The notes: generated by a model from the letters alone, not told the origin. 64,000 nt of DNA from Thermodesulfobacteriota bacterium (GCA_040757625.1 JBFLWU010000010.1:56898-120897), one strand, 5' to 3'. Positions 309-26,445 are shown, counted from the first letter of the stretch. Numbers and translations: made by a program.

Positions 309-2138
309 CTATTCGCCTGATTGCTCCCAGGTAACCCGCAACACCTCCTGATAGGTTGTTTTACCCTCCAGCAATATTTTGATGGCGTTTTCTCTTAAAG
401 TGATCATCCCTTCTTTCTGGGCCTGTATGCGAATGGCTTCGACCGGGGTCGTTTCAGAAGTCATATTTCTGATAGTATCCGAATAGGGCAGCACCTCAAA
501 AATTCCGCTTCGTCCCAGATACCCTGTCCCCCGGCATCTCGAGCACCCCTTGCCGCGAAAGAGACGGATATAGCCGCTGCTCCCGACCTCAATCCCCATG
601 GCTCTAATTTCAGCCGCATCCATATCAAAAGATTCTTTGCAATGGATGCAAATCTTTCGCACCAGACGTTGAGACAAAATTCCGACCAGGGTTGCCTGAA
701 TCAGATACGACGGAATCCCCAGATCCAGCAATCTGGTAATTGCGGCGGGAGCGTCGTTGGTATGAAGGGTCGATAGCACCAGATGCCCTGTAAGTGCCGC
801 CTGTACGGCATTTCGGGCGGTTTCCAGGTCCCGCATTTCACCGATCATGATTATGTCCGGGTCCTGACGTAAGATATTCCGCAGAATCGTCGCGAAGGTA
901 ATGCCGAGGACGGGTTGGACGGCAATTTGATTAAAATCTTCATGCACCATTTCTATGGGGTCTTCCACGGTTGTAATATTGATATCCGGCGATGACAAGT
1001 TTCTGAGAGTGGAATAAAGTGTGGTGGACTTGCCGCTCCCCGTCGGTCCGCAGACCAGAACAATACCGTGGGGGCTATTGATGAACTTGTTAAACCGAAT
1101 CAAGTCGGAACCGCTGAAGCCGAGCATCTCCAGGTCCTGAAAAAGAATCTCAGGGTCCATCACCCGCATGACGACTTTTTCGCCAAATGCAACCGGTACG
1201 GTGGAAACCCGTATCTCCACTTCCACACCGCCCTTGTCGGTTTTGATTCTTCCATCTTGGGGGCGCCGTTTTTCCGCCATGTCCAGCCGCGAAAGGTTTT
1301 TGATCCTGCTAACCACGGCTGAATGCACATTTTTAGGAAGCTTATAAACCGTATGCAGCGTCCCGTCGATTCGCATTCTAATCCAGCTTGCCTCTCTTTT
1401 GGGTTCGATATGAATATCACTGGCACGCTGATCGAACGCATAGGAAAGCAGATGGTTGACTGCCCTGATAATATGCTGATCATTGGAAGGCAGCTCTTCG
1501 GCAGATTTCAGGCTGACATATTGCTCCAGATTGCCCAGATCCACCGTGGGCCCTGCAAACTGGTTTTCCGCAGCGGCAATGGAACGTTTAAATCCGAAAA
1601 ATTCATCTATGAGCCGGACAATATCGGATTTGGGACTGATGACAGCCTTGACTTTCAGATGAATGGCTCGGGAGATATCTTCAAAAACATCCCGATTGTA
1701 AGGGTTGGCGGTTGCCACCGTCAAGTAACCGTCTTTGATGGCGATTGGAAGAACGAGATGCCTTAAAGCAAAAGAGCGCGGAATGGTCGTGGTTACCAGG
1801 TTCAAATCCAGTTTCAATGGATCGATTTTTTTAAACGGTATTCTCCATTCATTTGCCAGGGTTTCATAAATTAGATCCTCATCCACCAAGCCCGACTCCC
1901 TGCCCTTCCTTTTCAGGTTCAGGGCGGCAACCAGATCTACCCCGGTAACCGGTCCGACAATTCGACCGGATGAAAAGCCACCGTTTGATTTCTTGGTGCT
2001 GAGTTTTTCCAATTCCTTTATAAATACTTCTTTTTGGGCGAGGACCTCCCTGACCTGCTCGGCGGTAATCAAATCGTTAGCCAGGAGCACGCGGCAGACA
2101 TTTTCTGCAGAAAACTGGTTGCCAAGATCTGTGTTCAT
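309..2138 (-). CDS. GspE/PilB-family type IV pilus / type II secretion assembly ATPase
   Basis: 609-aa ORF. N-terminal T2SSE_N-like region. Walker A VCGPTGSGKSTT and Walker B/Asp-box region DPDIIMIGEMRD. C-terminal tetracysteine CIHC...CSRCRGTGY typical of GspE/PilB ATPases. Confidence 0.9.
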   Translation of the reverse strand: MNTDLGNQFSAENVCRVLLANDLITAEQVREVLAQKEVFIKELEKLSTKKSNGGFSSGRIVGPVTGVDLVAALNLKRKGRESGLVDEDLIYETLANEWRIPFKKIDPLKLDLNLVTTTIPRSFALRHLVLPIAIKDGYLTVATANPYNRDVFEDISRAIHLKVKAVISPKSDIVRLIDEFFGFKRSIAAAENQFAGPTVDLGNLEQYVSLKSAEELPSNDQHIIRAVNHLLSYAFDQRASDIHIEPKREASWIRMRIDGTLHTVYKLPKNVHSAVVSRIKNLSRLDMAEKRRPQDGRIKTDKGGVEVEIRVSTVPVAFGEKVVMRVMDPEILFQDLEMLGFSGSDLIRFNKFINSPHGIVLVCGPTGSGKSTTLYSTLRNLSSPDINITTVEDPIEMVHEDFNQIAVQPVLGITFATILRNILRQDPDIIMIGEMRDLETARNAVQAALTGHLVLSTLHTNDAPAAITRLLDLGIPSYLIQATLVGILSQRLVRKICIHCKESFDMDAAEIRAMGIEVGSSGYIRLFRGKGCSRCRGTGYLGRSGIFEVLPYSDTIRNMTSETTPVEAIRIQAQKEGMITLRENAIKILLEGKTTYQEVLRVTWEQSGE

Positions 2139-2837: not shown

Positions 2838-4286
2838 TTAATTCACAACCTTCTGCCAGCTGCCGCCGGTAAGAACAGCGTCGATGTTCTGCAGTTCGGG
2901 GTAATCCACATTTCCGAATCCGATCTGACCGTTCTTGTCTTTCCACATCAGGTATTGACCGCTGATCCCAGCGGCCAGCAGCTCTTCATCCAGCGGCTTG
3001 TTGGCTTTCTGCCGGGTCGGCAAATCCCCCACGCGCTTTTCCGACGGCGGCTCCTTCTCAAGGGTGGTCCATCCGCCCCTTGAAGCCACCTCCAGACGAT
3101 CCCTTTCAGGATACTGGGTGTCGCCGATTCCGATGGAACCGTCTTTATTCTTCCAGACCAGGTATTCACTGCTGATATCGGCAGCAAGGGTATTGACATC
3201 CCTTGCTGAAGAGCTTTTCGCTGGAATACCTTCAACGACAGCGGTTTCTTTAACGGCCGGTCTTTCAAGCGCGCTCCAGCCGCCCAGGGAAGCTACCATG
3301 AGGCGCTCCTTGTCGGGATACTGGGAATCACCGACACCGATGACGCCGCCCGTGCTTTTCCATACCAGGAAGTTCCGGCTGAAGCCGGCGGCGATCTCTT
3401 CCGTGCTTTGCGGCTTTTCAGCCACCGCGGCCTGGGTTTCCGTCAATTCGGTCAGCCCGTCCTTTTGACGCCGCTTGACATTGTACCAGCGGTTTTTAAC
3501 GGCGACATACATATCCGTACGATCGGGAAATTCCACATTGCTGACGCCGATGGCTCCGTTCAGGTCTTTCCAGACCATATAGCGCTCAAGGTTATATCCG
3601 ATTTGCGCTTCTTGGGCGGACACGGCCTCTTCGCCCACCAGCGTGATGATTCGCGACAGTTCAGTTTGAACGTTGACTTTTTCCTCCGAGATGTTCGGTC
3701 GATCAGCGCGCCTGGTTTCCGGGCTGACGGCTGCGGTTACCACATCAACTTCTTTCACCGTCATTTCGCGCTCCTGGATGACTTCGAGGATCATGCTCTC
3801 TGATATTGCCGCCTGGATAACTTCCGGAGTTTCTTCAGCTTCAACCTGAGCGGGTTTTTTGGGTGACGCCCGCCTGGTTGCCACCATCACGCCGCTGGTT
3901 TCCACCCCGGGCCGCATGGTGCTGTCAATTGAGGCCACCATGGTTTGGTTGTTGTAGGTCACGGATTTGGTCAGGGAAAAATTGTTCTCCGCCGGCGCAT
4001 AACTCCAATCGATCTGTTCGATAAACGCTTTGCTGGGCATATATTTGGGATACAAAACACCCAGATTGGGAGGATACACCTTGTTGTCGGCGTGATACTT
4101 TTGAATGGCTTCGGCCATCTCATATAACCCGCCCCGGGGACTTTTTTTAGCCATGTCAACCATGCGGCTGTATGTGTCCTCGCGATGGACCTGATTCGCA
4201 TCTTTTTGCCTGAAATGGCGGAACCCCATGAACGCCCCCCACAGGGCAACGACAAGCACCGCAATAATAATGTATTTTTTTTCCAT
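2838..4286 (-). CDS. N-terminally membrane-anchored protein with four ~60-aa C-terminal tandem repeats, function unknown
   Basis: 482-aa ORF with one N-terminal TM helix (IIIAVLVVALWGAFMGF). The segment EMAEAIQKYHADNKVYPPNLGVLYP resembles the GspG-type motif A-x2-Y-x2-DN-x-YP. Four repeats share the consensus (Y/F)L(V/M)WK-x3-G-x-IG(V/I/F)G-x3-YP...GGW. Confidence 0.6.
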   Translation of the reverse strand: MEKKYIIIAVLVVALWGAFMGFRHFRQKDANQVHREDTYSRMVDMAKKSPRGGLYEMAEAIQKYHADNKVYPPNLGVLYPKYMPSKAFIEQIDWSYAPAENNFSLTKSVTYNNQTMVASIDSTMRPGVETSGVMVATRRASPKKPAQVEAEETPEVIQAAISESMILEVIQEREMTVKEVDVVTAAVSPETRRADRPNISEEKVNVQTELSRIITLVGEEAVSAQEAQIGYNLERYMVWKDLNGAIGVSNVEFPDRTDMYVAVKNRWYNVKRRQKDGLTELTETQAAVAEKPQSTEEIAAGFSRNFLVWKSTGGVIGVGDSQYPDKERLMVASLGGWSALERPAVKETAVVEGIPAKSSSARDVNTLAADISSEYLVWKNKDGSIGIGDTQYPERDRLEVASRGGWTTLEKEPPSEKRVGDLPTRQKANKPLDEELLAAGISGQYLMWKDKNGQIGFGNVDYPELQNIDAVLTGGSWQKVVN

Positions 4287-4451: not shown

Positions 4452-5000
4452 TTACTTTGATACTGATTTGTTGTATGCTTCCGCCCGGGTTTGAAACGCC
4501 TGTCGCTGCTTCTCGTAGTCGGCCAGCCGTTGATTGAACAGATTCACCTTATTCTGGTAGGCGCGGATGCTTTCAACCGTCTTTAGGGTCTGTTGTTCCT
4601 TCTCAAGCGTTTCTTTTTCAGTTGCCAGCGAATTATAAATTTTGTCTAAATCCGCTTTGGCTTTGATGAGCGCGTCAAACTGCTGTTGGGATTGAGCGCC
4701 TTCCGCAACAGCATCCGGGCTTTGGTCTGCCGCCTCCCCTTTGGGTTGCTCGCTATCAGCCCTATCAACCGCCGGCTGGGCCTCATCCGCGCTGCCCGGC
4801 GCCGTCTTCACCTGCGGCGCGGCTTTTTCCTCCGGCCGGGTAATGATCTCCACTTTGGGCCGCTGGTTTTCCGGAATCTCGATATAATTGTCGGTAAAGT
4901 GAATCACGCCCCTTTCATCGGTATAGCGATAGAATTCCGCCGATACCATTGCCGGAAGCAGAAAAAAAAACAAGCTGATTGGCATATACCGCAAACGCAT
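4452..5000 (-). CDS. DUF4124-like secreted protein with coiled-coil C-terminus
   Basis: Signal peptide MRLRYMPISLFFFLLPAMVSA, followed by FYRYTDERGVIHFTDN (the DUF4124 signature Y-x-W/Y-x-D-x-x-G-x-x-H-F/Y-S/T-D). Low-complexity linker and heptad-like C-terminus. Confidence 0.6.
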   Translation of the reverse strand: MRLRYMPISLFFFLLPAMVSAEFYRYTDERGVIHFTDNYIEIPENQRPKVEIITRPEEKAAPQVKTAPGSADEAQPAVDRADSEQPKGEAADQSPDAVAEGAQSQQQFDALIKAKADLDKIYNSLATEKETLEKEQQTLKTVESIRAYQNKVNLFNQRLADYEKQRQAFQTRAEAYNKSVSK

Positions 5001-5077: not shown

Positions 5078-5932
5078 CTATTTCTTTCCCGATATTTTCC
5101 CGAGCTCTTTATCGATAATTTCCTGAAAACCGGTAAGCGTCCGGTTTTTCAAAACCCGACCGTTGATATAGACTGCCGGCGTCCCCCGGACGCCGGCCTG
5201 GTTGCCGTCTTGAAAATCCTGCCCAACCCTTGCCCGTATCGCAGGGCTTTTAAGATCGCTGTTATACTGTTCCATATTCAGCCCCAGAGAAACGGCTATT
5301 TCCTGAATTTTTTGTTCGCTCAGCTGATTATAGCTGTCAAACAACCGGTCATGAAACGGCCAGAACTTCCCCTGCCGATCTGCTGCAAGAGCCGCCTCAG
5401 CAGCTTTTTGGGCAAACTTGTGGTTCTGCAACGGAAAATTTTTATGGACCACTTTCACCCTATTGGGATTTTTCTCGAGCACCTGCTCGAGCAGCGGCAC
5501 CAGCCGCTGACAGTACACTCATTCAAAATCACTGAAAACGGCAATCACAACCGGAGCATCTTCTGCCCCTTTAAAGGGTGACCCCGACACGTTAATCGGT
5601 CGGATAAAGTCCAGGGTCACAATCTGAATCGTCTTATTTTTTCTGCTGGTCAGCAGCAGCAGGTCTTCCCTGGGGCCAACCCGGATGCCGTCCACCTTAT
5701 TGCCGACGGTGAGTTGTCCCTCCAGCCTGCCGTCGGGGGTATAAACTTGCACGCTACCGGTTTGGGTCAAAACAAAAAGCCACTTCCCGTTCACCGAAAC
5801 AGCCACATCAACCGGCGCTTCCTGCAGCTTCAAGGTGCGCTGGATATCCGCCTCCACTTCAGCGCTACTGTTTGAACCCCCTATTGCAATCAGCAGCAGC
5901 ACCAGCGCACACATATTCAGTCTTTTTTTCAA
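5078..5932 (-). CDS. DsbA-family thiol:disulfide oxidoreductase, probable selenoprotein (in-frame TGA at 5519-5521 read as Sec; redox motif U-V-Y-C)
   Basis: Track ORFs 5519..5989 and 5078..5518 are in the same frame, separated only by TGA. The joined sequence reads ...APVVIAVFSDFE-TGA-VYCQRLVPLLE, so the TGA sits at the first Cys position of a DsbA CxxC motif. The cis-Pro loop GVRGTPAVYING lies downstream. The start is uncertain. TTG 5932, preceded by GAGAGG, gives the signal peptide MKKRLNMCALVLLLIAIGG; ATG 5914 is the alternative. Confidence 0.75.
5474..5509 (-). promoter_or_regulatory. Candidate bacterial SECIS element (two adjacent perfect hairpins just 3' of the in-frame UGA)
   Basis: The mRNA reads UGA GUG UAC UGU, then CAGCGGC-UGGU-GCCGCUG (5492-5509), then CUCGAGCA-GG-UGCUCGAG (5474-5491). 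The first stem starts 9 nt after the UGA, and its apical loop contains G and U. Confidence 0.55.
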
Positions 5933-5995
5933 ATCATGACCTCTCTTTCTTTTGCGAATCCGCCCCGTGACGGATCGCTGCGGCCCCAACCCCTA

Positions 5996-8900
5996 TTATT
6001 TCACCTCACCCCAGCTCGCCTTGCCGGTCTTGGCATTTTGAATCGGCAGATTGGGTTGCGGAATCTCCACAATCGTTCCGGTACTGGTCTGGACAAACGC
6101 CTTGGCGCCTTCCTGCCTGCCCACGTGCAGGTTCGGCGTGGTGGCCAGACCACGCCCCAGGGCCACCCGGTCTATCACGCCACCGGTAGTCGTATCGACA
6201 CCGGTGCTAAAAGCACTGATGAAAATTGGGATATAGAACGACGTTCCGGTCCGGAAATAGACACCGTAAAGATATCCCAGGCCCTCCGGCAGACAGGGGT
6301 CGGCATAAGGCTGGTAGCTGGTATAGGTCACCAGACCGCCCAGCAGGGTCGCCTGGCCCAGGTTGCGCTCTTTGCTCAGGGTAAGGTCCTTATACCAGCC
6401 GTCAGTCCCGCTGGAATCAGTTCCCGTATCACAGCCTGTGCCGGTTCCGGCGATATAACTCTCCAGCGTATCGAACGTCGTCAGGGTCGTCGGCGAAATC
6501 TCAAGACAGCTGGTCGAGCCGTCACTGCAGGAGAGTATGGCAGCGTGGGCGGTCGTCGCCTGATGCACCTGGATCTTTGTAACATCCAGGAGCCCCTGGT
6601 CGCCAGGCGTGCTGTTGTGATGAAAATCATCCACATCCGTCTTTTCAACTGTCTCCCAGGTAAAAGACGCCTGACAGTTGCTCGTGCTCCCGCTGAAGGA
6701 AAGCGGCTCCTTGATGCCGTAATAGGTCTGCTGACTGGTGTCGCTCTTATCACCGGTTTCCAGAAAACGACCGGTGCCGAAATAAACCCAGTAGTTTTTA
6801 CCGTCGGTCCCCACGCTGGCCGATGCCGTCACCGGTTGACTCGTATTTATCAGGGGCAGTGGATTTGTCAGAGACGAGGCGCTCAGCAGGCCGGACCAAT
6901 CGCTGGGAAGGGTTTCATCCTGCTTGCCGGTAACGCTGTTGATTTTCCGGGTAACCAGCCGCTGCAGGCCGCCCCCATAGGGCGCTGACGTGCCGGATAC
7001 GGTTCCGAAATAAACCACATCCGATTTAAAATTCTCCTCCAGTTCAAAGTCCACGGTAATCGGGTCCGAAACGAAACTGTTGCTGGTATAGGCCAGAACA
7101 AACTGGCCGCCCTCGTTATTGGCCACGCTTGGCGCGCCGCTCGGTATCCGGAATCCCCGGGCGGTGGATCCGCCCTGCCCCAGCCATTCCAGCGGCAGGA
7201 CGGCCACGCTGGCCGACTGGTTGCTGCTCCCGCTGACGCTGGTAGGCCCGCTGCCCATGACGAGATACCATTTATAGGTCACCGGCGGTCCTGCGTTTTT
7301 CATCACCACCAGGGTGGGAATGGCCAAGGTGAAACCCAATTCGGCTTCCGATCCGGAAGTGGTCCGTGTCATCTCCGCCAGCAGGACTGGCGGTTTTTCC
7401 GGATCGGTTATATCCATAACAAAGTAGGCTGAGGTAAATTCGCGGGTATCAGCCGGGTAATCCGCTGCCGCATTGCCGTTCAGATCCAGTACGCCCGGGC
7501 GAACTTTGCCGCCGCCGAGGCGCATGGCGCCCACCAGGAGGGTCCCCCATCCGCCCACATGGGTGGTGTCGCCGGTGGCGGGCCACAGGCGCACGTCAAA
7601 AATGCGCGGCCGCTGGTCCACATAGTACTTGTGCTGATAACCGGCCGACGTCATGCAGTTCAGGTGCGGCAGCAGGTTATAGGGGACATAGGCCCATAAC
7701 TCCGCCCCCAGATCCGGCGTATTGGTATTGACGCTGCAGTCGCTGGTGCGGCAGAATTTTTTCTGGGCTTCATTGTAGAATCCGCCGTTGACGGCATGCA
7801 TCATGCCGTCGTTGCCGCCGAAATAAATCATGTGGCGCCGTTTTTTGTAAGCCGCCACGAACTGGGCATAAGAGTTGTCGCGATACAAAAAATGATACCC
7901 TTCCGCCGGTGCCGCCACCGAAATCGGGGTGGAATGGATCACATCTCCCAGCCGCCAGGTTATGGTTTCATCCACGCCGTTATGATCGAAGTCATAGGGC
8001 ATCTGGCGCAGCCGCAGATTGTCGGGGGTATAATCCAGGCCCCGCAGCCACCTGATAATTGTGTCGACCTCGGCATTGGTCTGGACACCGAAATCGAGCG
8101 GCACGGGACCGCGGCCTCCGGACACCGACAGACCGGACCAGCTGGTGCCGGGTGTAAAGTCTAGCAGTTCGTTGCTGTCCACGATGCCGTCGTTGTCCAG
8201 ATCGTTCCAGGTAAAGATATAGCGTTTTTTTACATTCGATATAAACCCGGTGGTTGTCCCCACCAGGGTGCGGTTCTGTAAGATGTCGCCTGCGGCTGTT
8301 GCAGAAGCGGCCGTCGGTTGGATTTCCGCCAGCCACTGGGCCGCCGACCAGTGATACTTCACATCCTCCAGGTTCAACGTTGATCCGGTGCAGGCGCCGC
8401 CGGCGTCCAGATCGCCGACGCAGGCCTTGGTCTGATTGATGGATTGATCAAAGAAAAACACGATGCGCTGGTCGCCGCTATCCAGGGCATGGTCCCCGTT
8501 GCTGTCTTCATAGAGCTGTCCGTAGGCGTCCACCAGAAGGGAGTGGACCTCGCCGATCCACTGGACCTTGTCACCGCTGGCCAGGTCCACGCTAGGCCAG
8601 AAAATGGCCTGATAGGCGGCGCCTTCGCCGCTGCGCGAGGCCGAAATAACCGAGGCGGCCGAACCGGCCGCGGCCCCGGCCCGGATGGCGGCGAAGGCCG
8701 CCCGCAGGGTATTTTCAAGCTGGGTCGGGTCCGCAGCCTCATAAAGGGCGGTGCCGCCGTTGGCGGCGGCAGCTTCCAAGAGCACCTTGGGGTTGCATTC
8801 ATCGGCCGCACCGGTATCCCGCAGGGTGCCGGCCACCACGATATGGGTGGCGATGTTTTGCTTGTCCTGGGGGTTGCCGTCCGCGTCATTCATCTGGGAC

Positions 8901-11239
8901 ACTTGACAGTTTGAGCTGTTTTTCGCAAACCAAGTCAGATCGTCCAGCAGGGTGCTGCCGTTCAACGTCCCGCAGTTTGCGGAAGCGGTCGTGTCGCCGG
9001 TGTCGCCGTCATTCTGCCCGGAGGTGCCGGTAAAACTGACGACATCGGGGTTGACGTCCGCGGTGGAGGCCCCTTCGGTAATAATCAAAATGTTATTGTC
9101 CTGACAGTAGGCGGTGATGGGATCCACCGCCCCGGCATCCATGCCTACGATCTTGTAATCGGTGCTGTTCAGGCGCATCAGGGCGCCGTTAGTCCCATCC
9201 CGCTGGGTGTAATAGCCGATGGCGTTGTAAATAGCCTCGGCAAGAGGCGTCCAGGATGTGGCCTTAATGCTGTTGATGGCATTCACCAGGCTGGTAGTGT
9301 GAGCGCTGGACTTGTCGATTTCGGAAATCAGTTTGGCCGCGTCTTTATTGGTGGGATCCGTACACTTGTAAAGAACAAAGGGGTCTGCCGTGCTGCACTC
9401 GGCATTAGAACCCTCATGATTAAACACCATGGCGCCAATGCGAATATCATTGGCAAATTCCTGCAAGAGCCCGCTGGGAGCGCTGGTCCGCTCGATCATC
9501 CCCCTCATGACCAGCAGCGGCTGGCCGAGTTGCGCCACCACCCCGGAATCGGTCAAGAGGGCCGGTATGTTCCAGAATTCCTCGGTGGCGCCGGTCACCG
9601 GGCTGGTCCCGGCGATCTGGTCGCTGGGATCCACCACCTGCGGGATTTCGGTCTGGCCGCAGTAATCCTGCAAGGCCTGCTCAATGCAGGCATCCGCATC
9701 CGCATAGCCGGCCGCATCCCAGCCGCCTGTCACCACACCGGTATAATCCCATTTCTGGCATTCCCCGGTTGTGGGATGGGTCTTGGTACAGGTGGGCGTG
9801 CCCGACGCCGGCTTCCAGCAGCGCCCCACATAACCGATCTTGGTGCTGGGGTCGGCATCACCGTCCCAGACACCGAAGCAGACATACCCCCCCATGTCCG
9901 TGGTGATGTCCCAGGGTTGGGTGGTTCCGGCTGCCGGATAGATGGCTTCGCAGGCCGGTTTGATGGCCTGCACCGGGCCGCTGCCCGACGGCCAGGTGCC
10001 CTGTTTGGCCACGTACCAGCAGTTGTGAATGGAATGGTTGAAGGCGGCATTGAAGTTGGAAGTATCACCGGTATTGCCCGAGGCCAGGGCATTGTCGGCC
10101 ATGCAGGTATCGATGTCTTGTTTGATCTGGCCCTGGTTGGGGCTTGCCGAGTTTAATTCTTCGATGGCGTCCTGGCAGGCGTCGTTGTTATATCCGCCGG
10201 CAATGGTTTCAAAAATCTCGATCTGGGTCACATTGTAAGGCTCCCATTTCGGCCGCGTGGCATCGCCGGCATTGTCAGCGTCCGTCCCGCCGCTGGCGCT
10301 GGCCGTGCCCCCGGAAGTGGCAATGTACATGGAACCTTCATCAATGGAGTTGGCCTTGGTGGGATCAACAACGATATCGCCGGTCACATAAGGCGCCCCA
10401 GCTGTCCAGCGCGTCTTGGTATAGAGCGCCCAGCGGGGGGCCGGCGGAGAAGCCAGGGTGTTATCGTTTACCGTACTGACGGTACCGGATGTGCCGGCGG
10501 TCGTACACTTATACAGGTCCCCGCCGTCGCTGACTATCTTTCCGACTGCATAGGCTGTTGAGGCCTTCCAAGCGTCAAATTTGTCCTCTTTGGGCGGCCG
10601 CACCCCCAGGGTCACGGATTTGGCATTTCCCCCTGAGTCGGTTACCGCGATTTCCCGGACCATCCGTCTTTCCAGGCAGCCGCGCGATTCCATCACCAGC
10701 TTGCTGCTTTCATATTTCCCGCCGGTCAGAATTTTTTTCTGTATGTCGAGCTTGGACCCCGCGGCCCAGTTCAAAAAATTGCCGCTGGCCTTAAAAGCCG
10801 TAACGTTCAAGACCCCGTTGACTTTGATATAAATGATGTTTGCCGACGAATAAATATCCGTGGATGCGGCCGAGTCATAGAGACTGGCACTGGTGGAGTT
10901 CAGCCGGAACATTCTGTTGGTAAGGTCATAGACATACATTTCGGACGGTGTAAAATAGCCGGCATAAGTTATCCCATTATCATAGGAACTGTCGTAGCAG
11001 TAACTGGCGTCATTAACATAAGCCAAGTCCAGCATACTGGCGGAGTTGTCGATCACCAGGAGAAGATTGGGATCCACGCCGCCGGAAAGAAACGGCGGAG
11101 TGGCGTTGTCGCTGGCGCAGATGCCGGCCGAACTGGTGGGAAAGGCCGCCAGGGCCTTGCCGGGAGAAAATTCGCCGGCCGCCGCCAGCAGCGTTGCCAT
11201 CGCCAGAATCATCACTATATGTTTGCAGGAGCGTTTCAT
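5996..11239 (-). CDS. PilY1/PilC-like type IV pilus tip adhesin, giant cysteine-rich form with vWA-like N-domain
   Basis: ATG 11239 is preceded by AAGGAGG. Signal peptide MKRSCKHIVMILAMATLLAAAG...ALA. MIDAS-like LLLVIDNSASM. PilY1 beta-propeller-type motif YFGGNDGMMHAVNGG in the C-terminal half. It follows a PilX-like gene, as in fimU-pilVWXY1 operons. Confidence 0.8.
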   Translation of the reverse strand: MKRSCKHIVMILAMATLLAAAGEFSPGKALAAFPTSSAGICASDNATPPFLSGGVDPNLLLVIDNSASMLDLAYVNDASYCYDSSYDNGITYAGYFTPSEMYVYDLTNRMFRLNSTSASLYDSAASTDIYSSANIIYIKVNGVLNVTAFKASGNFLNWAAGSKLDIQKKILTGGKYESSKLVMESRGCLERRMVREIAVTDSGGNAKSVTLGVRPPKEDKFDAWKASTAYAVGKIVSDGGDLYKCTTAGTSGTVSTVNDNTLASPPAPRWALYTKTRWTAGAPYVTGDIVVDPTKANSIDEGSMYIATSGGTASASGGTDADNAGDATRPKWEPYNVTQIEIFETIAGGYNNDACQDAIEELNSASPNQGQIKQDIDTCMADNALASGNTGDTSNFNAAFNHSIHNCWYVAKQGTWPSGSGPVQAIKPACEAIYPAAGTTQPWDITTDMGGYVCFGVWDGDADPSTKIGYVGRCWKPASGTPTCTKTHPTTGECQKWDYTGVVTGGWDAAGYADADACIEQALQDYCGQTEIPQVVDPSDQIAGTSPVTGATEEFWNIPALLTDSGVVAQLGQPLLVMRGMIERTSAPSGLLQEFANDIRIGAMVFNHEGSNAECSTADPFVLYKCTDPTNKDAAKLISEIDKSSAHTTSLVNAINSIKATSWTPLAEAIYNAIGYYTQRDGTNGALMRLNSTDYKIVGMDAGAVDPITAYCQDNNILIITEGASTADVNPDVVSFTGTSGQNDGDTGDTTASANCGTLNGSTLLDDLTWFAKNSSNCQVSQMNDADGNPQDKQNIATHIVVAGTLRDTGAADECNPKVLLEAAAANGGTALYEAADPTQLENTLRAAFAAIRAGAAAGSAASVISASRSGEGAAYQAIFWPSVDLASGDKVQWIGEVHSLLVDAYGQLYEDSNGDHALDSGDQRIVFFFDQSINQTKACVGDLDAGGACTGSTLNLEDVKYHWSAAQWLAEIQPTAASATAAGDILQNRTLVGTTTGFISNVKKRYIFTWNDLDNDGIVDSNELLDFTPGTSWSGLSVSGGRGPVPLDFGVQTNAEVDTIIRWLRGLDYTPDNLRLRQMPYDFDHNGVDETITWRLGDVIHSTPISVAAPAEGYHFLYRDNSYAQFVAAYKKRRHMIYFGGNDGMMHAVNGGFYNEAQKKFCRTSDCSVNTNTPDLGAELWAYVPYNLLPHLNCMTSAGYQHKYYVDQRPRIFDVRLWPATGDTTHVGGWGTLLVGAMRLGGGKVRPGVLDLNGNAAADYPADTREFTSAYFVMDITDPEKPPVLLAEMTRTTSGSEAELGFTLAIPTLVVMKNAGPPVTYKWYLVMGSGPTSVSGSSNQSASVAVLPLEWLGQGGSTARGFRIPSGAPSVANNEGGQFVLAYTSNSFVSDPITVDFELEENFKSDVVYFGTVSGTSAPYGGGLQRLVTRKINSVTGKQDETLPSDWSGLLSASSLTNPLPLINTSQPVTASASVGTDGKNYWVYFGTGRFLETGDKSDTSQQTYYGIKEPLSFSGSTSNCQASFTWETVEKTDVDDFHHNSTPGDQGLLDVTKIQVHQATTAHAAILSCSDGSTSCLEISPTTLTTFDTLESYIAGTGTGCDTGTDSSGTDGWYKDLTLSKERNLGQATLLGGLVTYTSYQPYADPCLPEGLGYLYGVYFRTGTSFYIPIFISAFSTGVDTTTGGVIDRVALGRGLATTPNLHVGRQEGAKAFVQTSTGTIVEIPQPNLPIQNAKTGKASWGEVK

Positions 11240-11378
11240 GGATTGACCTCCTTTGCTTCCGCTGACATTCAATACTTTTATTTGATTATCCAATTTTCTG
11301 TAATCCAATTTCAAATAGTCCCCCCTTTTTTCCCGCTTTTTCGACAAGGGATTGGGAGGGATTCTAATTTATAAGTCA

Positions 11379-11981
11379 TCAGTAGTTGCAGGCCCCTTCC
11401 TGCCCGATCACATGGCGCCACTGAACCCGAATGACGGACTGGCTGCCGGCGATCCCCACATGCTGGGAATGCATGTCATATATGATATAGGCCCCGCCGG
11501 CGCCGGCGCCCTTGCCCTTGCCTTCATAACCGCTGACCATCTGGATGGCATTGCCGGTTGAGTACTTGGTGTTGCCTCCCACGGTCAGGTTGTTATGGGG
11601 CTGGCTGCCGCTGTAATTCTCTGGAAAGTAAAAATGACGGTTGGCGTCGGTCGGGACAGTGGCGACCGCATCGGTATTTTCCCATAACGTCAGATCGGTC
11701 ACCCTCACCGAACCCACATTGCGCTGCCCCCCGCCCAGGGTATCGGTAAAACCGCCGGCACAGCCCAGATTCTGTTCCAGCAGCTCGGCCCCGATGTCGA
11801 TGCCGCCGTCGGCCGCATAAAAAGCCAGTTTGTGCAGGCGGTCATTGGAGGCGATCTGCATTTCCAGTGAGGCTGTTGTGGTAATAGCAATGCCGATGAG
11901 GGTCAACAGCATCAAAATGATAATGGCAATTACCATCAACGACCCCTTTTCATTATTTAAAATGATTGCTATCGGTCGCAT
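11379..11981 (-). CDS. PilX-like type IV pilus minor pilin/assembly protein
   Basis: 200 aa. N-terminus NEKGSLMVIAIIILMLLTLIGIAITTTASLEMQIASN matches the PilX_N pattern. Located immediately upstream of the PilY1-like gene. Confidence 0.65.
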   Translation of the reverse strand: MRPIAIILNNEKGSLMVIAIIILMLLTLIGIAITTTASLEMQIASNDRLHKLAFYAADGGIDIGAELLEQNLGCAGGFTDTLGGGQRNVGSVRVTDLTLWENTDAVATVPTDANRHFYFPENYSGSQPHNNLTVGGNTKYSTGNAIQMVSGYEGKGKGAGAGGAYIIYDMHSQHVGIAGSQSVIRVQWRHVIGQEGACNY

Positions 11982-25364: not shown

Positions 25365-26270
25365 TTACTCTCCCACCCTCTCGTCGTCGGTTTCATCCGT
25401 TTCATCTTGATCGTATTCAAATGGATCGACCGTTCCCTGGGTCGACCGCTTGATGATCTCCACCACAGGGCCCTTGGTGCCGTCGGAAATAATCTTGCGT
25501 TCGCCCGGTTTCATCTCCGCGCTGACAACCGCCACCTCTGACTTTTCCTCGGTTTCTTTATCGGCTTCGGCCTGCTGTTTTTCCGCCAGCAGCTCCTTTC
25601 CGGCCACGCAGGCATCGGCAATCTTGGATGTCAGCAGCCGAATCGCTCGAATCGCATCATCGTTGCCGGGAATGGGATAATCCACCTCATCCGGGTCGCA
25701 GTTGGTATCTACCACTGCGGCGATGGGGATATTAAGCCGCCGGCCTTCACGCACCGCGATGGATTCATTGTTCGGATCAATCACAAAGATCGCTCCCGGA
25801 AGCCGGGTCATGCTGCGGATGCCTCCCAGGTTGTTGTCGAGTTTGACCCTTTCCTTGGCCAGCTGCAGCCGCTCCTTTTTGGGAAACAGGTTAATGGTGC
25901 CGTCGTTCTGGATCGTATTGAGATAATTCAGACGATCAATACTCTTTTTGATCGTCTGGAAATTGGTCAGCATACCGCCCAGCCAGCGATTGTGAACATA
26001 GAACATCTCGCAGCGGTTGGCCTCTTCATAGATGGCATCCCGCGCCTGTTTCTTGGTCCCCACAAACAGGACCGAACGACCATTTGCCACGGTGTCGACA
26101 ATAAAATCATAGACCGTTTTAAACATCCGGACGGTTTTTTGCAGGTCAATGATATAAATCCCGTTACGCGCGCCGAAAATATAAGGCTTCATCTTGGGAT
26201 TCCACCGCTTGGTCTGATGACCGAAATGAACCCCTGCTTCCAAGAGTTCCTTCATTGTTACATACGCCAT
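25365..26270 (-). CDS. rpsB: 30S ribosomal protein S2 with acidic C-terminal extension
   Basis: ATG 26270 is preceded by AAAGGAG; the track ORF extends spuriously to 26378. [27 protein letters not shown]. Confidence 0.95.
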
Positions 26271-26445
26271 TTTGTTCTCCTTTTCTGTTTGGTTTTTCCT
26301 CCGCCCGTTTCCGCCCCGCTTCCGACCCTCGCCGAGAGCACCTGGAAGCCGGTCCACGGACGTGTGAGTTATTGACAATTATTAAACGAATTTTAGTATC
26401 AAATTAATTTGACATTCGCAAGATAATTATTTCGGATCAGGCAAA

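Follow-up and report, generated by a model that had tools for sequence, protein, structure and literature searches.

A DsbA-like gene interrupted by TGA in a Thermodesulfobacteriota genome: a probable selenoprotein with a conserved downstream hairpin

One reading frame and its TGA codon

The subject of this study is a putative gene of a DsbA-like selenoprotein located in a 64,000-nucleotide stretch of DNA from a Thermodesulfobacteriota bacterium (GCA_040757625.1 JBFLWU010000010.1:56898-120897; hereafter the window), which is chromosomal and forms part of a 124,695-bp contig of a metagenome-assembled genome. Translation of positions 5932..5078 (-) revealed one frame of 284 codons whose sole internal stop is the TGA at 5521..5519. 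The two open reading frames (ORFs) found here, 5519..5989(-) and 5078..5518(-), lie in the same frame and are split by nothing but this TGA, as had been stated in an earlier note based on the sequence of the window. The joined product reads ...APVVIAVFSDFE-[TGA]-VYCQRLVPLLEQVLE..., with VVIAVFSDFE*VYCQRLVPLLEQVLE around the stop, so that the active-site stretch takes the form FSDFE-U-VYC when the TGA is translated as selenocysteine (Sec, U). The gene is present in GenBank as two entries, MEW6671447.1 (137 aa, hypothetical protein) and MEW6671446.1 (146 aa, thioredoxin domain-containing protein), which is the outcome that the earlier note expected of automated annotation.

The most likely start of the gene is the TTG at 5932; a GAGAGG Shine-Dalgarno sequence precedes it, and TTG is also the initiation codon of the two closest homologues. 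The first 24 residues have the appearance of a signal peptide, and reading of this region revealed no lipobox. The second Cys of the redox motif (a TGT codon) and the DsbA-type cis-Pro loop downstream (GVRGTP, 5194..5177, with a Pro that is invariant among the homologues) were both found where the earlier note had placed them (Table 1). A six-frame scan of the whole 64-kb window for other in-frame TGA junctions yielded no second credible one. Comparison with the loci L088 and L089, which contain the nearest relatives of the window gene, indicated purifying selection in both halves of the gene; in the codons 3' of the TGA, 52 synonymous and 30 non-synonymous changes separate the window gene from L088, and the downstream half is therefore still selected as protein.

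The homologue database search returned 437 sequences, nearly all of ~284 aa, and 120 of these were aligned to inspect the column of the TGA. This column is occupied by Cys in 109 of the 120 homologues, which bears out the claim that the TGA sits exactly at the first Cys of a CxxC motif. Seven others have Trp at this position; however, in all seven cases the corresponding DNA contains an in-frame TGA, which means that the wrong genetic code was used in the gene calls. The residue opposite the TGA is thus in most cases Cys, in line with the alignment check proposed in the earlier note, and the apparent Trp is itself a TGA. The “W” entries in question are proteins P0024, P0067, P0068, P0070, P0094, P0098 and P0106 (loci L001-L007). 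Translation of selenoprotein-bearing contigs with a code in which TGA specifies Trp is an artefact of the databases by which Sec sites are concealed, and its exposure at the active site of these homologous entries is one of the practical outcomes of the analysis.

A scan of species-representative genomes provided 80 loci, and orthologues for which DNA could be compared numbered 50, including the window. Half of them (25/50, i.e. the window and 24 others) carry TGA at this codon, and the remaining 25 carry TGC or TGT. Three of the TGA-bearing orthologues come from isolates, all of them cultured Desulfobulbales: Desulforhopalus singaporensis DSM 12130, Desulfopila sp. IMCC35006 and Desulforhopalus sp. 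IMCC35007. Sec would therefore be used by roughly 50% of the members sampled from this periplasmic subfamily, which occurs throughout the Desulfobacterota. Cys is present in every one of the shorter homologues, in which the N-terminal domain is missing. Sec and Cys forms are intermixed in a neighbour-joining tree, where the window gene is placed within a clade composed mostly of Sec forms.

Decoding of the UGA as Trp or Gly, through a reassigned code or by near-cognate readthrough, is hardly credible. It could be suggested by the public gene calls that give W for the homologous TGA, but TGA is the ordinary stop codon of 16 of the 45 window genes, from which it follows that the code has not been reassigned. 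Moreover, a CxxC fold with Trp at the position of the nucleophile would have no activity, and the TGA is accompanied by a hairpin of the type required for Sec insertion (see below). A second alternative is that the frame encodes two independent proteins, namely a beta-domain protein terminated at the TGA and a thioredoxin-like protein initiated at the GTG at 5518. This GTG lies directly 3' of the TGA and gene callers do yield both products, but it is not preceded by a Shine-Dalgarno sequence, and the resulting C-terminal product would have neither strand beta-1 nor the signal peptide nor the nucleophilic residue. The earlier note had named homologues ending at the TGA as the observation that would count against a joined protein; all 109 Cys homologues continue through this position as single chains of ~284 aa, and we consider the existence of two separate proteins extremely unlikely.

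Hairpins downstream of the TGA

The region around the TGA (91 nt, 5530..5440(-)) was folded with RNAfold and compared with 200 shuffled sequences. Two adjacent hairpins were obtained, with a minimum free energy (MFE) of -30.9 kcal/mol (z = -3.2; 3 of the 200 shuffles were equally stable). The first is the perfect 7-bp hairpin CAGCGGC-UGGU-GCCGCUG, beginning nine nt past the UGA, exactly as the earlier note had described it. The second hairpin, which that note reported to follow directly as a perfect 8-bp structure, is indeed present (5491..5474), but with a stem of 7 bp and a 4-nt loop, because pairing of the whole 8-nt inverted repeat would require a loop of 2 nt, which is impossible. It begins 27 nt past the UGA and its loop begins 34 nt past it.

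The conservation of these structures was examined with RNAalifold in an alignment of 93 nt around the TGA, built from the 25 TGA forms. The second hairpin, CUCGAGC-AGGU-GCUCGAG, was the sole consensus helix; it is 94% paired across these sequences, with compensatory changes at four of its pairs (CG to UA, GC to CG and GC to UA). At the corresponding positions (+31..+48) a mean of 6.6 of the 7 stem pairs can form in the TGA forms, compared with 3.2 of 7 in the Cys forms, and the stem retains all six of its inner pairs in 24/25 and 1/25 sequences, respectively. The loop in the TGA forms is always AGGU or AGUU. In addition, identity at the third positions of codons +10..+15 reaches 0.81 among the Sec forms, whereas it is 0.37 among the Cys forms, a value equal to the whole-gene mean (0.37). 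Synonymous sites are therefore frozen in Sec forms alone, and in these solely at the hairpin. The prediction of a selenocysteine insertion sequence (SECIS) downstream of the TGA thus holds as far as the presence of a SECIS-type hairpin tied to the TGA forms is concerned, the conserved element being the second hairpin and not the first, which the earlier note had emphasised.

In the bacterial SECIS (bSECIS) model the loop consists of 3-9 nt with a G among its first two nucleotides, the stem contains 4-16 bp, the distance between the UGA and the loop is 16-37 nt and the MFE is at most -7.5 kcal/mol (PMC13188914). A check of the region against this model, which had been proposed earlier, showed that the hairpin at 5491..5474 agrees with it on all four counts (AGGU, 7 bp, 34 nt and -10.7 kcal/mol). 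With the bacterial consensus used in bSECISearch it shares the 4-nt loop, in which position 2 is G and the next one G or U, and the 7-bp stem; the window element differs in its near-limit spacing and in the presence of a second, variable hairpin within the spacer. Its sequence bears no resemblance to the SECIS of E. coli fdhF. The strikingly invariant form of this family-specific SECIS could make it a useful search model.

The first hairpin (5509..5492) is perfect in the window, where it has a free energy of -13.2 kcal/mol and also satisfies the bSECIS model. Nevertheless, it is only 55% paired across the TGA orthologues, and for this reason it was rejected as the primary SECIS. The TGA forms are modestly enriched in its 3-bp core, which remains intact in 14/25 of them and in 2/25 Cys forms, and the hairpin is possibly an accessory or spacer-compacting element.

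Two near-fixed synonymous sites, again confined to the Sec forms, were observed outside the hairpin: the Tyr codon TAC at +2 (0.85 vs 0.49) and the Val codon GTG at +7 (0.92 vs 0.23), corresponding to 5509..5515 and 5498..5500 (-) of the window and to columns 22-26 and 37-39 of alignment A2. They hint at additional constraints on the RNA in the interval from the UGA to the SECIS.

If the known bacterial mechanism operates here, SelB with Sec-tRNA(Sec) would be recruited to the UGA (5521..5519) by the hairpin at 5491..5474, which has G at loop position 2 at a UGA distance given as 34 nt, and Sec would be inserted in place of termination. The hairpin at 5509..5492 would fill the spacer and may draw the SECIS nearer to the ribosome. 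The product would then be exported via the Sec translocon and its signal peptide cleaved off, after which U138 and C141 would alternate between the selenenylsulfide and the selenol/thiol state, exchanging with substrate cysteines.

Several observations weigh against the selenoprotein interpretation. The distance of the loop from the UGA is close to the upper end of the range allowed by the bSECIS model, and a search of 5380..5600 against Rfam in permissive mode matched no SECIS family and returned only hits at chance level. The association between TGA and hairpin (24/25 vs 1/25; Fisher p ~1e-11) is calculated as if kin loci were independent, with no phylogenetic correction. Cys is the residue found in the two closest homologues (76% and 72% identity), and the members of the subfamily are known from sequence alone. 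Furthermore, searches with ARAGORN, Rfam and Pfam found no selA, selB, selD or tRNA-Sec in the 64-kb window, where tRNA-Arg was the only tRNA detected with ARAGORN and Rfam, and the ~40 ORFs analysed with Pfam represented housekeeping and pilus genes only.

Two related searches extended beyond the window: tRNA-Sec was not found in 41 related loci, a result that is uninformative, and the GlpC-like Fe-S/CCG neighbours of the orthologues, considered as a potential second selenoprotein, contain no in-frame TGA. Desulfobacterota genomes are among the most selenoprotein-rich in BSepDB, the top genomes having 49-57 such genes (PMC13326102), and the deltaproteobacterial sulfate reducer Desulfotalea has 12 (PMC1794560). 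The prior is therefore favourable, though this is not a test.

A further alternative is a pseudogene or a sequencing error, in which a Cys codon (TGC or TGT) would have been converted to TGA, leaving a dead gene in two annotated halves. The nearest two homologues have TGC at this position, one base from TGA, GenBank shows two fragments, and the Sec machinery is missing from the window. On the other hand, 24 other orthologues have TGA at the same codon, the window retains a perfect copy of the consensus hairpin that goes with TGA and is lost in the Cys forms, the downstream half is under purifying selection, and the window gene is nested in the Sec clade. In the light of these data a dead gene appears very unlikely. 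The hairpin is weakened in L088 and L089, which are Cys forms; because of this weakening, the distribution agrees with a recent change from Sec to Cys in their lineage and not with a nonsense mutation in the window. We therefore interpret the sequence, with a probability of roughly 0.88, as one gene predicted to encode a DsbA-like selenoprotein with Sec as its first active-site residue. The annotation would be corrected accordingly, with MEW6671446.1 and MEW6671447.1 joined into one selenoprotein.

Table 1. Coordinates of the predicted gene, its parts and adjoining genes in the window, and gene arrangements at orthologous loci
Feature	Position or locus	Strand	Remarks
Complete selenoprotein gene (predicted)	5078..5932	-	TTG start, one in-frame TGA, TAG stop, 284 codons; putative exported DsbA-like thiol-disulfide oxidoreductase
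Putative signal peptide, residues 1-24	5861..5932	-	MKKR n-region, hydrophobic core, SSA/E cleavage-type site; read from the sequence
N-terminal beta-rich domain, residues ~36-110	5603..5827	-	Seven strands, pLDDT >90 (P0001 model)
DsbA-fold catalytic domain, residues 117-275	5108..5584	-	Thioredoxin fold with helical insertion; Pfam, PDB, Foldseek
TGA as probable selenocysteine U138	5519..5521	-	First position of the U-V-Y-C redox motif; aligned Cys and TGA orthologues
First hairpin, CAGCGGC-UGGU-GCCGCUG	5492..5509	-	Between UGA and SECIS; onset 9 nt past UGA
TGT, resolving Cys C141 of UxxC	5510..5512	-	Sequence; column is Cys in 120/121 aligned
Conserved SECIS hairpin, CUCGAGC-AGGU-GCUCGAG	5474..5491	-	7-bp stem, 4-nt loop 5484..5481
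GVRGTP, Thr-cisPro loop facing the active site	5177..5194	-	Sequence and homologue conservation
PilY1-like protein, 1783 aa, 31 Cys	5996..11347	-	Upstream, 63-nt gap; Pfam T4P_PilY1 9.5e-15
DUF4124 protein	4452..5000	-	Downstream, 77-nt gap; Pfam DUF4124
PilY1-dsbA-PilB order	L009		
DUF4124-dsbA-PilB order	L010		
DUF4124 adjoining the gene	L088, L089, L004 (also window, L010)		
dsbA-phoH-ybeY/pdxJ order	16 loci		Desulfobulbales-containing part of the tree
Unrelated neighbours	Several loci		
ccsA upstream, DsbB-family gene ~400 nt downstream	L038 (Desulforhopalus sp. IMCC35007)		

Fold, relatives and probable function

For the Pfam and NCBIfam searches Cys was put in place of the internal stop. 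The best supported families were Thioredoxin_4 (PF13462; 2.9e-25, 89.8 bits, cutoff 23.2) and DSBA (PF01323; 8e-20, 71.9 bits, cutoff 25.6), and both matches span the TGA. The closest sequence matches in the PDB were 3gyk, ScsC, BdbD, a corynebacterial DsbA and classical DsbA. As a proxy for the window protein we used an AlphaFold (AF2) model of P0001, a Cys homologue of 76% identity. This model has a predicted local distance difference test (pLDDT) score of 93 and comprises a helix (residues 2-18), an N-terminal domain of seven strands and, after it, a DsbA fold. Foldseek matched it to 3gyk, BdbD and Wolbachia alpha-DsbA2 with E-values of 1e-11 to 1e-13, and the further matches include ScsC, MdbA and TcpG. 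The window protein therefore displays the features typical of DsbA proteins, i.e. the CxxC-type motif, the cis-Pro loop and, as judged from the proxy model, the helical insertion. In the homologue alignment P252 is invariant, and G247, V248 and G250 are conserved in at least 90% of the sequences. The consensus motif of the family is CPYC with a Thr-cisPro loop; in the window the motif is U-V-Y-C.

The N-terminal domain has no match in Pfam. In structure it resembles two blades of a beta-propeller, although the Foldseek matches are weak; they include 6r5x and 6r5z (propellers assembled from 2- or 3-blade fragments) and NHLRC2 (thioredoxin plus propeller). Such an incomplete propeller, as seen in the model, suggests that the domain might serve in oligomerisation.

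DsbA-like selenoproteins with a UxxC motif are not new. As the earlier note had stated, they constitute an established class, which was predicted in 2005-2006: “DsbA-like protein form 1” (PF01323) was predicted from the Sargasso Sea metagenome, Anaeromyxobacter, Desulfovibrio and Desulfotomaculum (PMC1088965, PMC1794560, PMC13188914), and in a 2026 review it stands beside the DsbG-like NF041057 (PMC13188914). The shared features are the DsbA/thioredoxin fold, Sec in place of the first Cys, the existence of Cys homologues and a SECIS located downstream within the gene. The window gene is therefore a further member of the known UxxC DsbA-like selenoproteins and not a new kind of system, and the understanding of Sec decoding and of Dsb systems is unchanged by it. 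It differs from the Sargasso Sea family in that the latter belongs to COG2761 (FrnE-type DsbA), whereas the window protein matches best with PF13462 and has an extra N-terminal domain of ~90 aa. This two-blade beta domain characterises the subfamily, for which there is no dedicated NCBIfam model.

The best NCBIfam match was NF041057 (Rcas_1661 thioredoxin-like (seleno)lipoproteins), with which the window protein shares UxxC and an exported thioredoxin-like fold. However, the match covers the C-terminal domain only, there is no lipobox, and the score of 86 bits is below the cutoff of 190; membership of this family was therefore rejected.

The nearest proteins of solved structure, ScsC (of Proteus, Salmonella and Caulobacter), BdbD of Bacillus subtilis, Wolbachia alpha-DsbA2 and 3gyk, are of the PF13462 type (E 1e-18 to 1e-10 by sequence; template modelling score to the target 0.75-0.85) and have the CPxC-type motif and the Thr-cisPro loop. 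In contrast to the window protein, all are Cys enzymes, and any N-terminal parts for oligomerisation that they possess are helical and not two-blade beta structures. TcpG, the DsbA of Vibrio cholerae (PDB 4dvc), is needed for the toxin-coregulated pilus. It is a structural match and a precedent for a pilus-linked DsbA, but it is a single-domain Cys enzyme with a CPHC-type motif, and in the case of the window protein the link with pili consists of gene adjacency in one subclade.

The principal role of the enzyme might be oxidising (DsbA-like) or isomerising/reducing (ScsC/DsbG-like), and the features visible in its sequence fit either equally well. We consider it somewhat short of an even chance that the selenoprotein acts as an isomerase or reductase similar to ScsC, DsbG or DsbC, maintained in reduced form by a partner of the DsbD/CcdA type, and not as a pilus-dedicated oxidant of the DsbA type. 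This possibility, which concerns function only, is consistent with the CPYC consensus and Thr-cisPro loop, with the presence of ScsC and Wolbachia alpha-DsbA2 among the nearest solved relatives, with the location of most orthologues away from pilus genes, and with the two-blade domain, which could bring about oligomerisation of the kind known from ScsC or DsbC. The established chemistry of selenium points in the same direction, since a selenenylsulfide, though a faster exchanger, has less oxidising power in thermodynamic terms than a disulfide. Conversely, the structural neighbours BdbD, MdbA and TcpG are oxidases, no DsbD or CcdA was seen beside the gene, and one orthologue (L038) lies ~400 nt from a gene of the DsbB family, the classical re-oxidant of DsbA.

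Gene neighbourhood and the pilus link

Pfam identified the neighbours of the gene as PilY1-like, PilX, PilW, GspH-like, pilin and PilB-like, and the gene is located on the same strand as the minor pilins and PilB. The pilus setting described in the earlier note was thus confirmed, with two corrections: the number of Cys residues in the PilY1-like protein is 31 and not about 35, and among the minor pilins a Cys pair occurs only in PilX and the GspH-like protein. A promoter and terminator scan of the interval between the PilY1-like gene and the selenoprotein gene gave the same counts as shuffled sequences and was uninformative.

Outside the window, pilus genes flank the orthologue only in L009 and L010, so a family-wide linkage to pili was not observed; it is plausible that the link is limited to the subclade of the window. 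The other orthologues have diverse surroundings (Table 1), and the family as a whole has the appearance of a general periplasmic oxidoreductase. The location of the gene, with PilY1 on one side and PilB on the other, suggests the Cys-rich pilus tip protein as one of its clients in this lineage, the PilY1-like neighbour being a candidate substrate. The earlier proposal of a dedicated, highly reactive oxidant for the folding of pilus components therefore finds limited backing in the adjacency within this subclade. Dedication to pili does not extend across the family, and the designation as a high-reactivity oxidant is not established, because of the weaker oxidising power of the selenenylsulfide mentioned above. 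In broader terms, the gene would add an exported selenium-dependent disulfide catalyst to those of anaerobes, encoded in one lineage inside a type IV pilus cluster.

No DsbB or VKOR re-oxidising partner was found in the window. L038 is the only examined locus with a candidate re-oxidant beside the gene. Its Sec-form orthologue (9022-9876; 11211-11660 is also listed) is flanked by genes for CcsA/ResC-type cytochrome c assembly and a DsbB-family protein.

A more far-reaching scenario may also be considered, in which a Desulfobacterales-like lineage possesses a Sec enzyme dedicated to the folding of the 31-Cys PilY1-like tip protein and the pilus, the N-terminal domains joining the subunits into a complete beta-propeller. 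We regard this as unlikely; if true, it would represent an oligomeric selenium-based disulfide isomerase/oxidase with an architecture not described for Dsb proteins.

Some further features of the window were recorded. Besides the PilY1 propeller, the PilY1-like protein contains a CBM_5_12 carbohydrate-binding module near its N-terminus. The PilB-type ATPase (309..2138 (-)) has an MshEN domain (the N-terminal domain of MshE, which binds cyclic di-GMP), suggesting an MSHA-like pilus system controlled by cyclic di-GMP. The pilus cluster also includes an ORF of 482 aa (2838..4286 (-)) with no Pfam match and no Cys, whose counterpart of 74% identity lies beside the orthologue in L089. Finally, the ORF of ribosomal protein S2 (25365..26378 (-)) extends over 337 aa from a TTG. 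The S2 domain covers only residues 45-260, and the true start may therefore be located further downstream; beyond the domain there is a C-terminal extension of ~75 aa.

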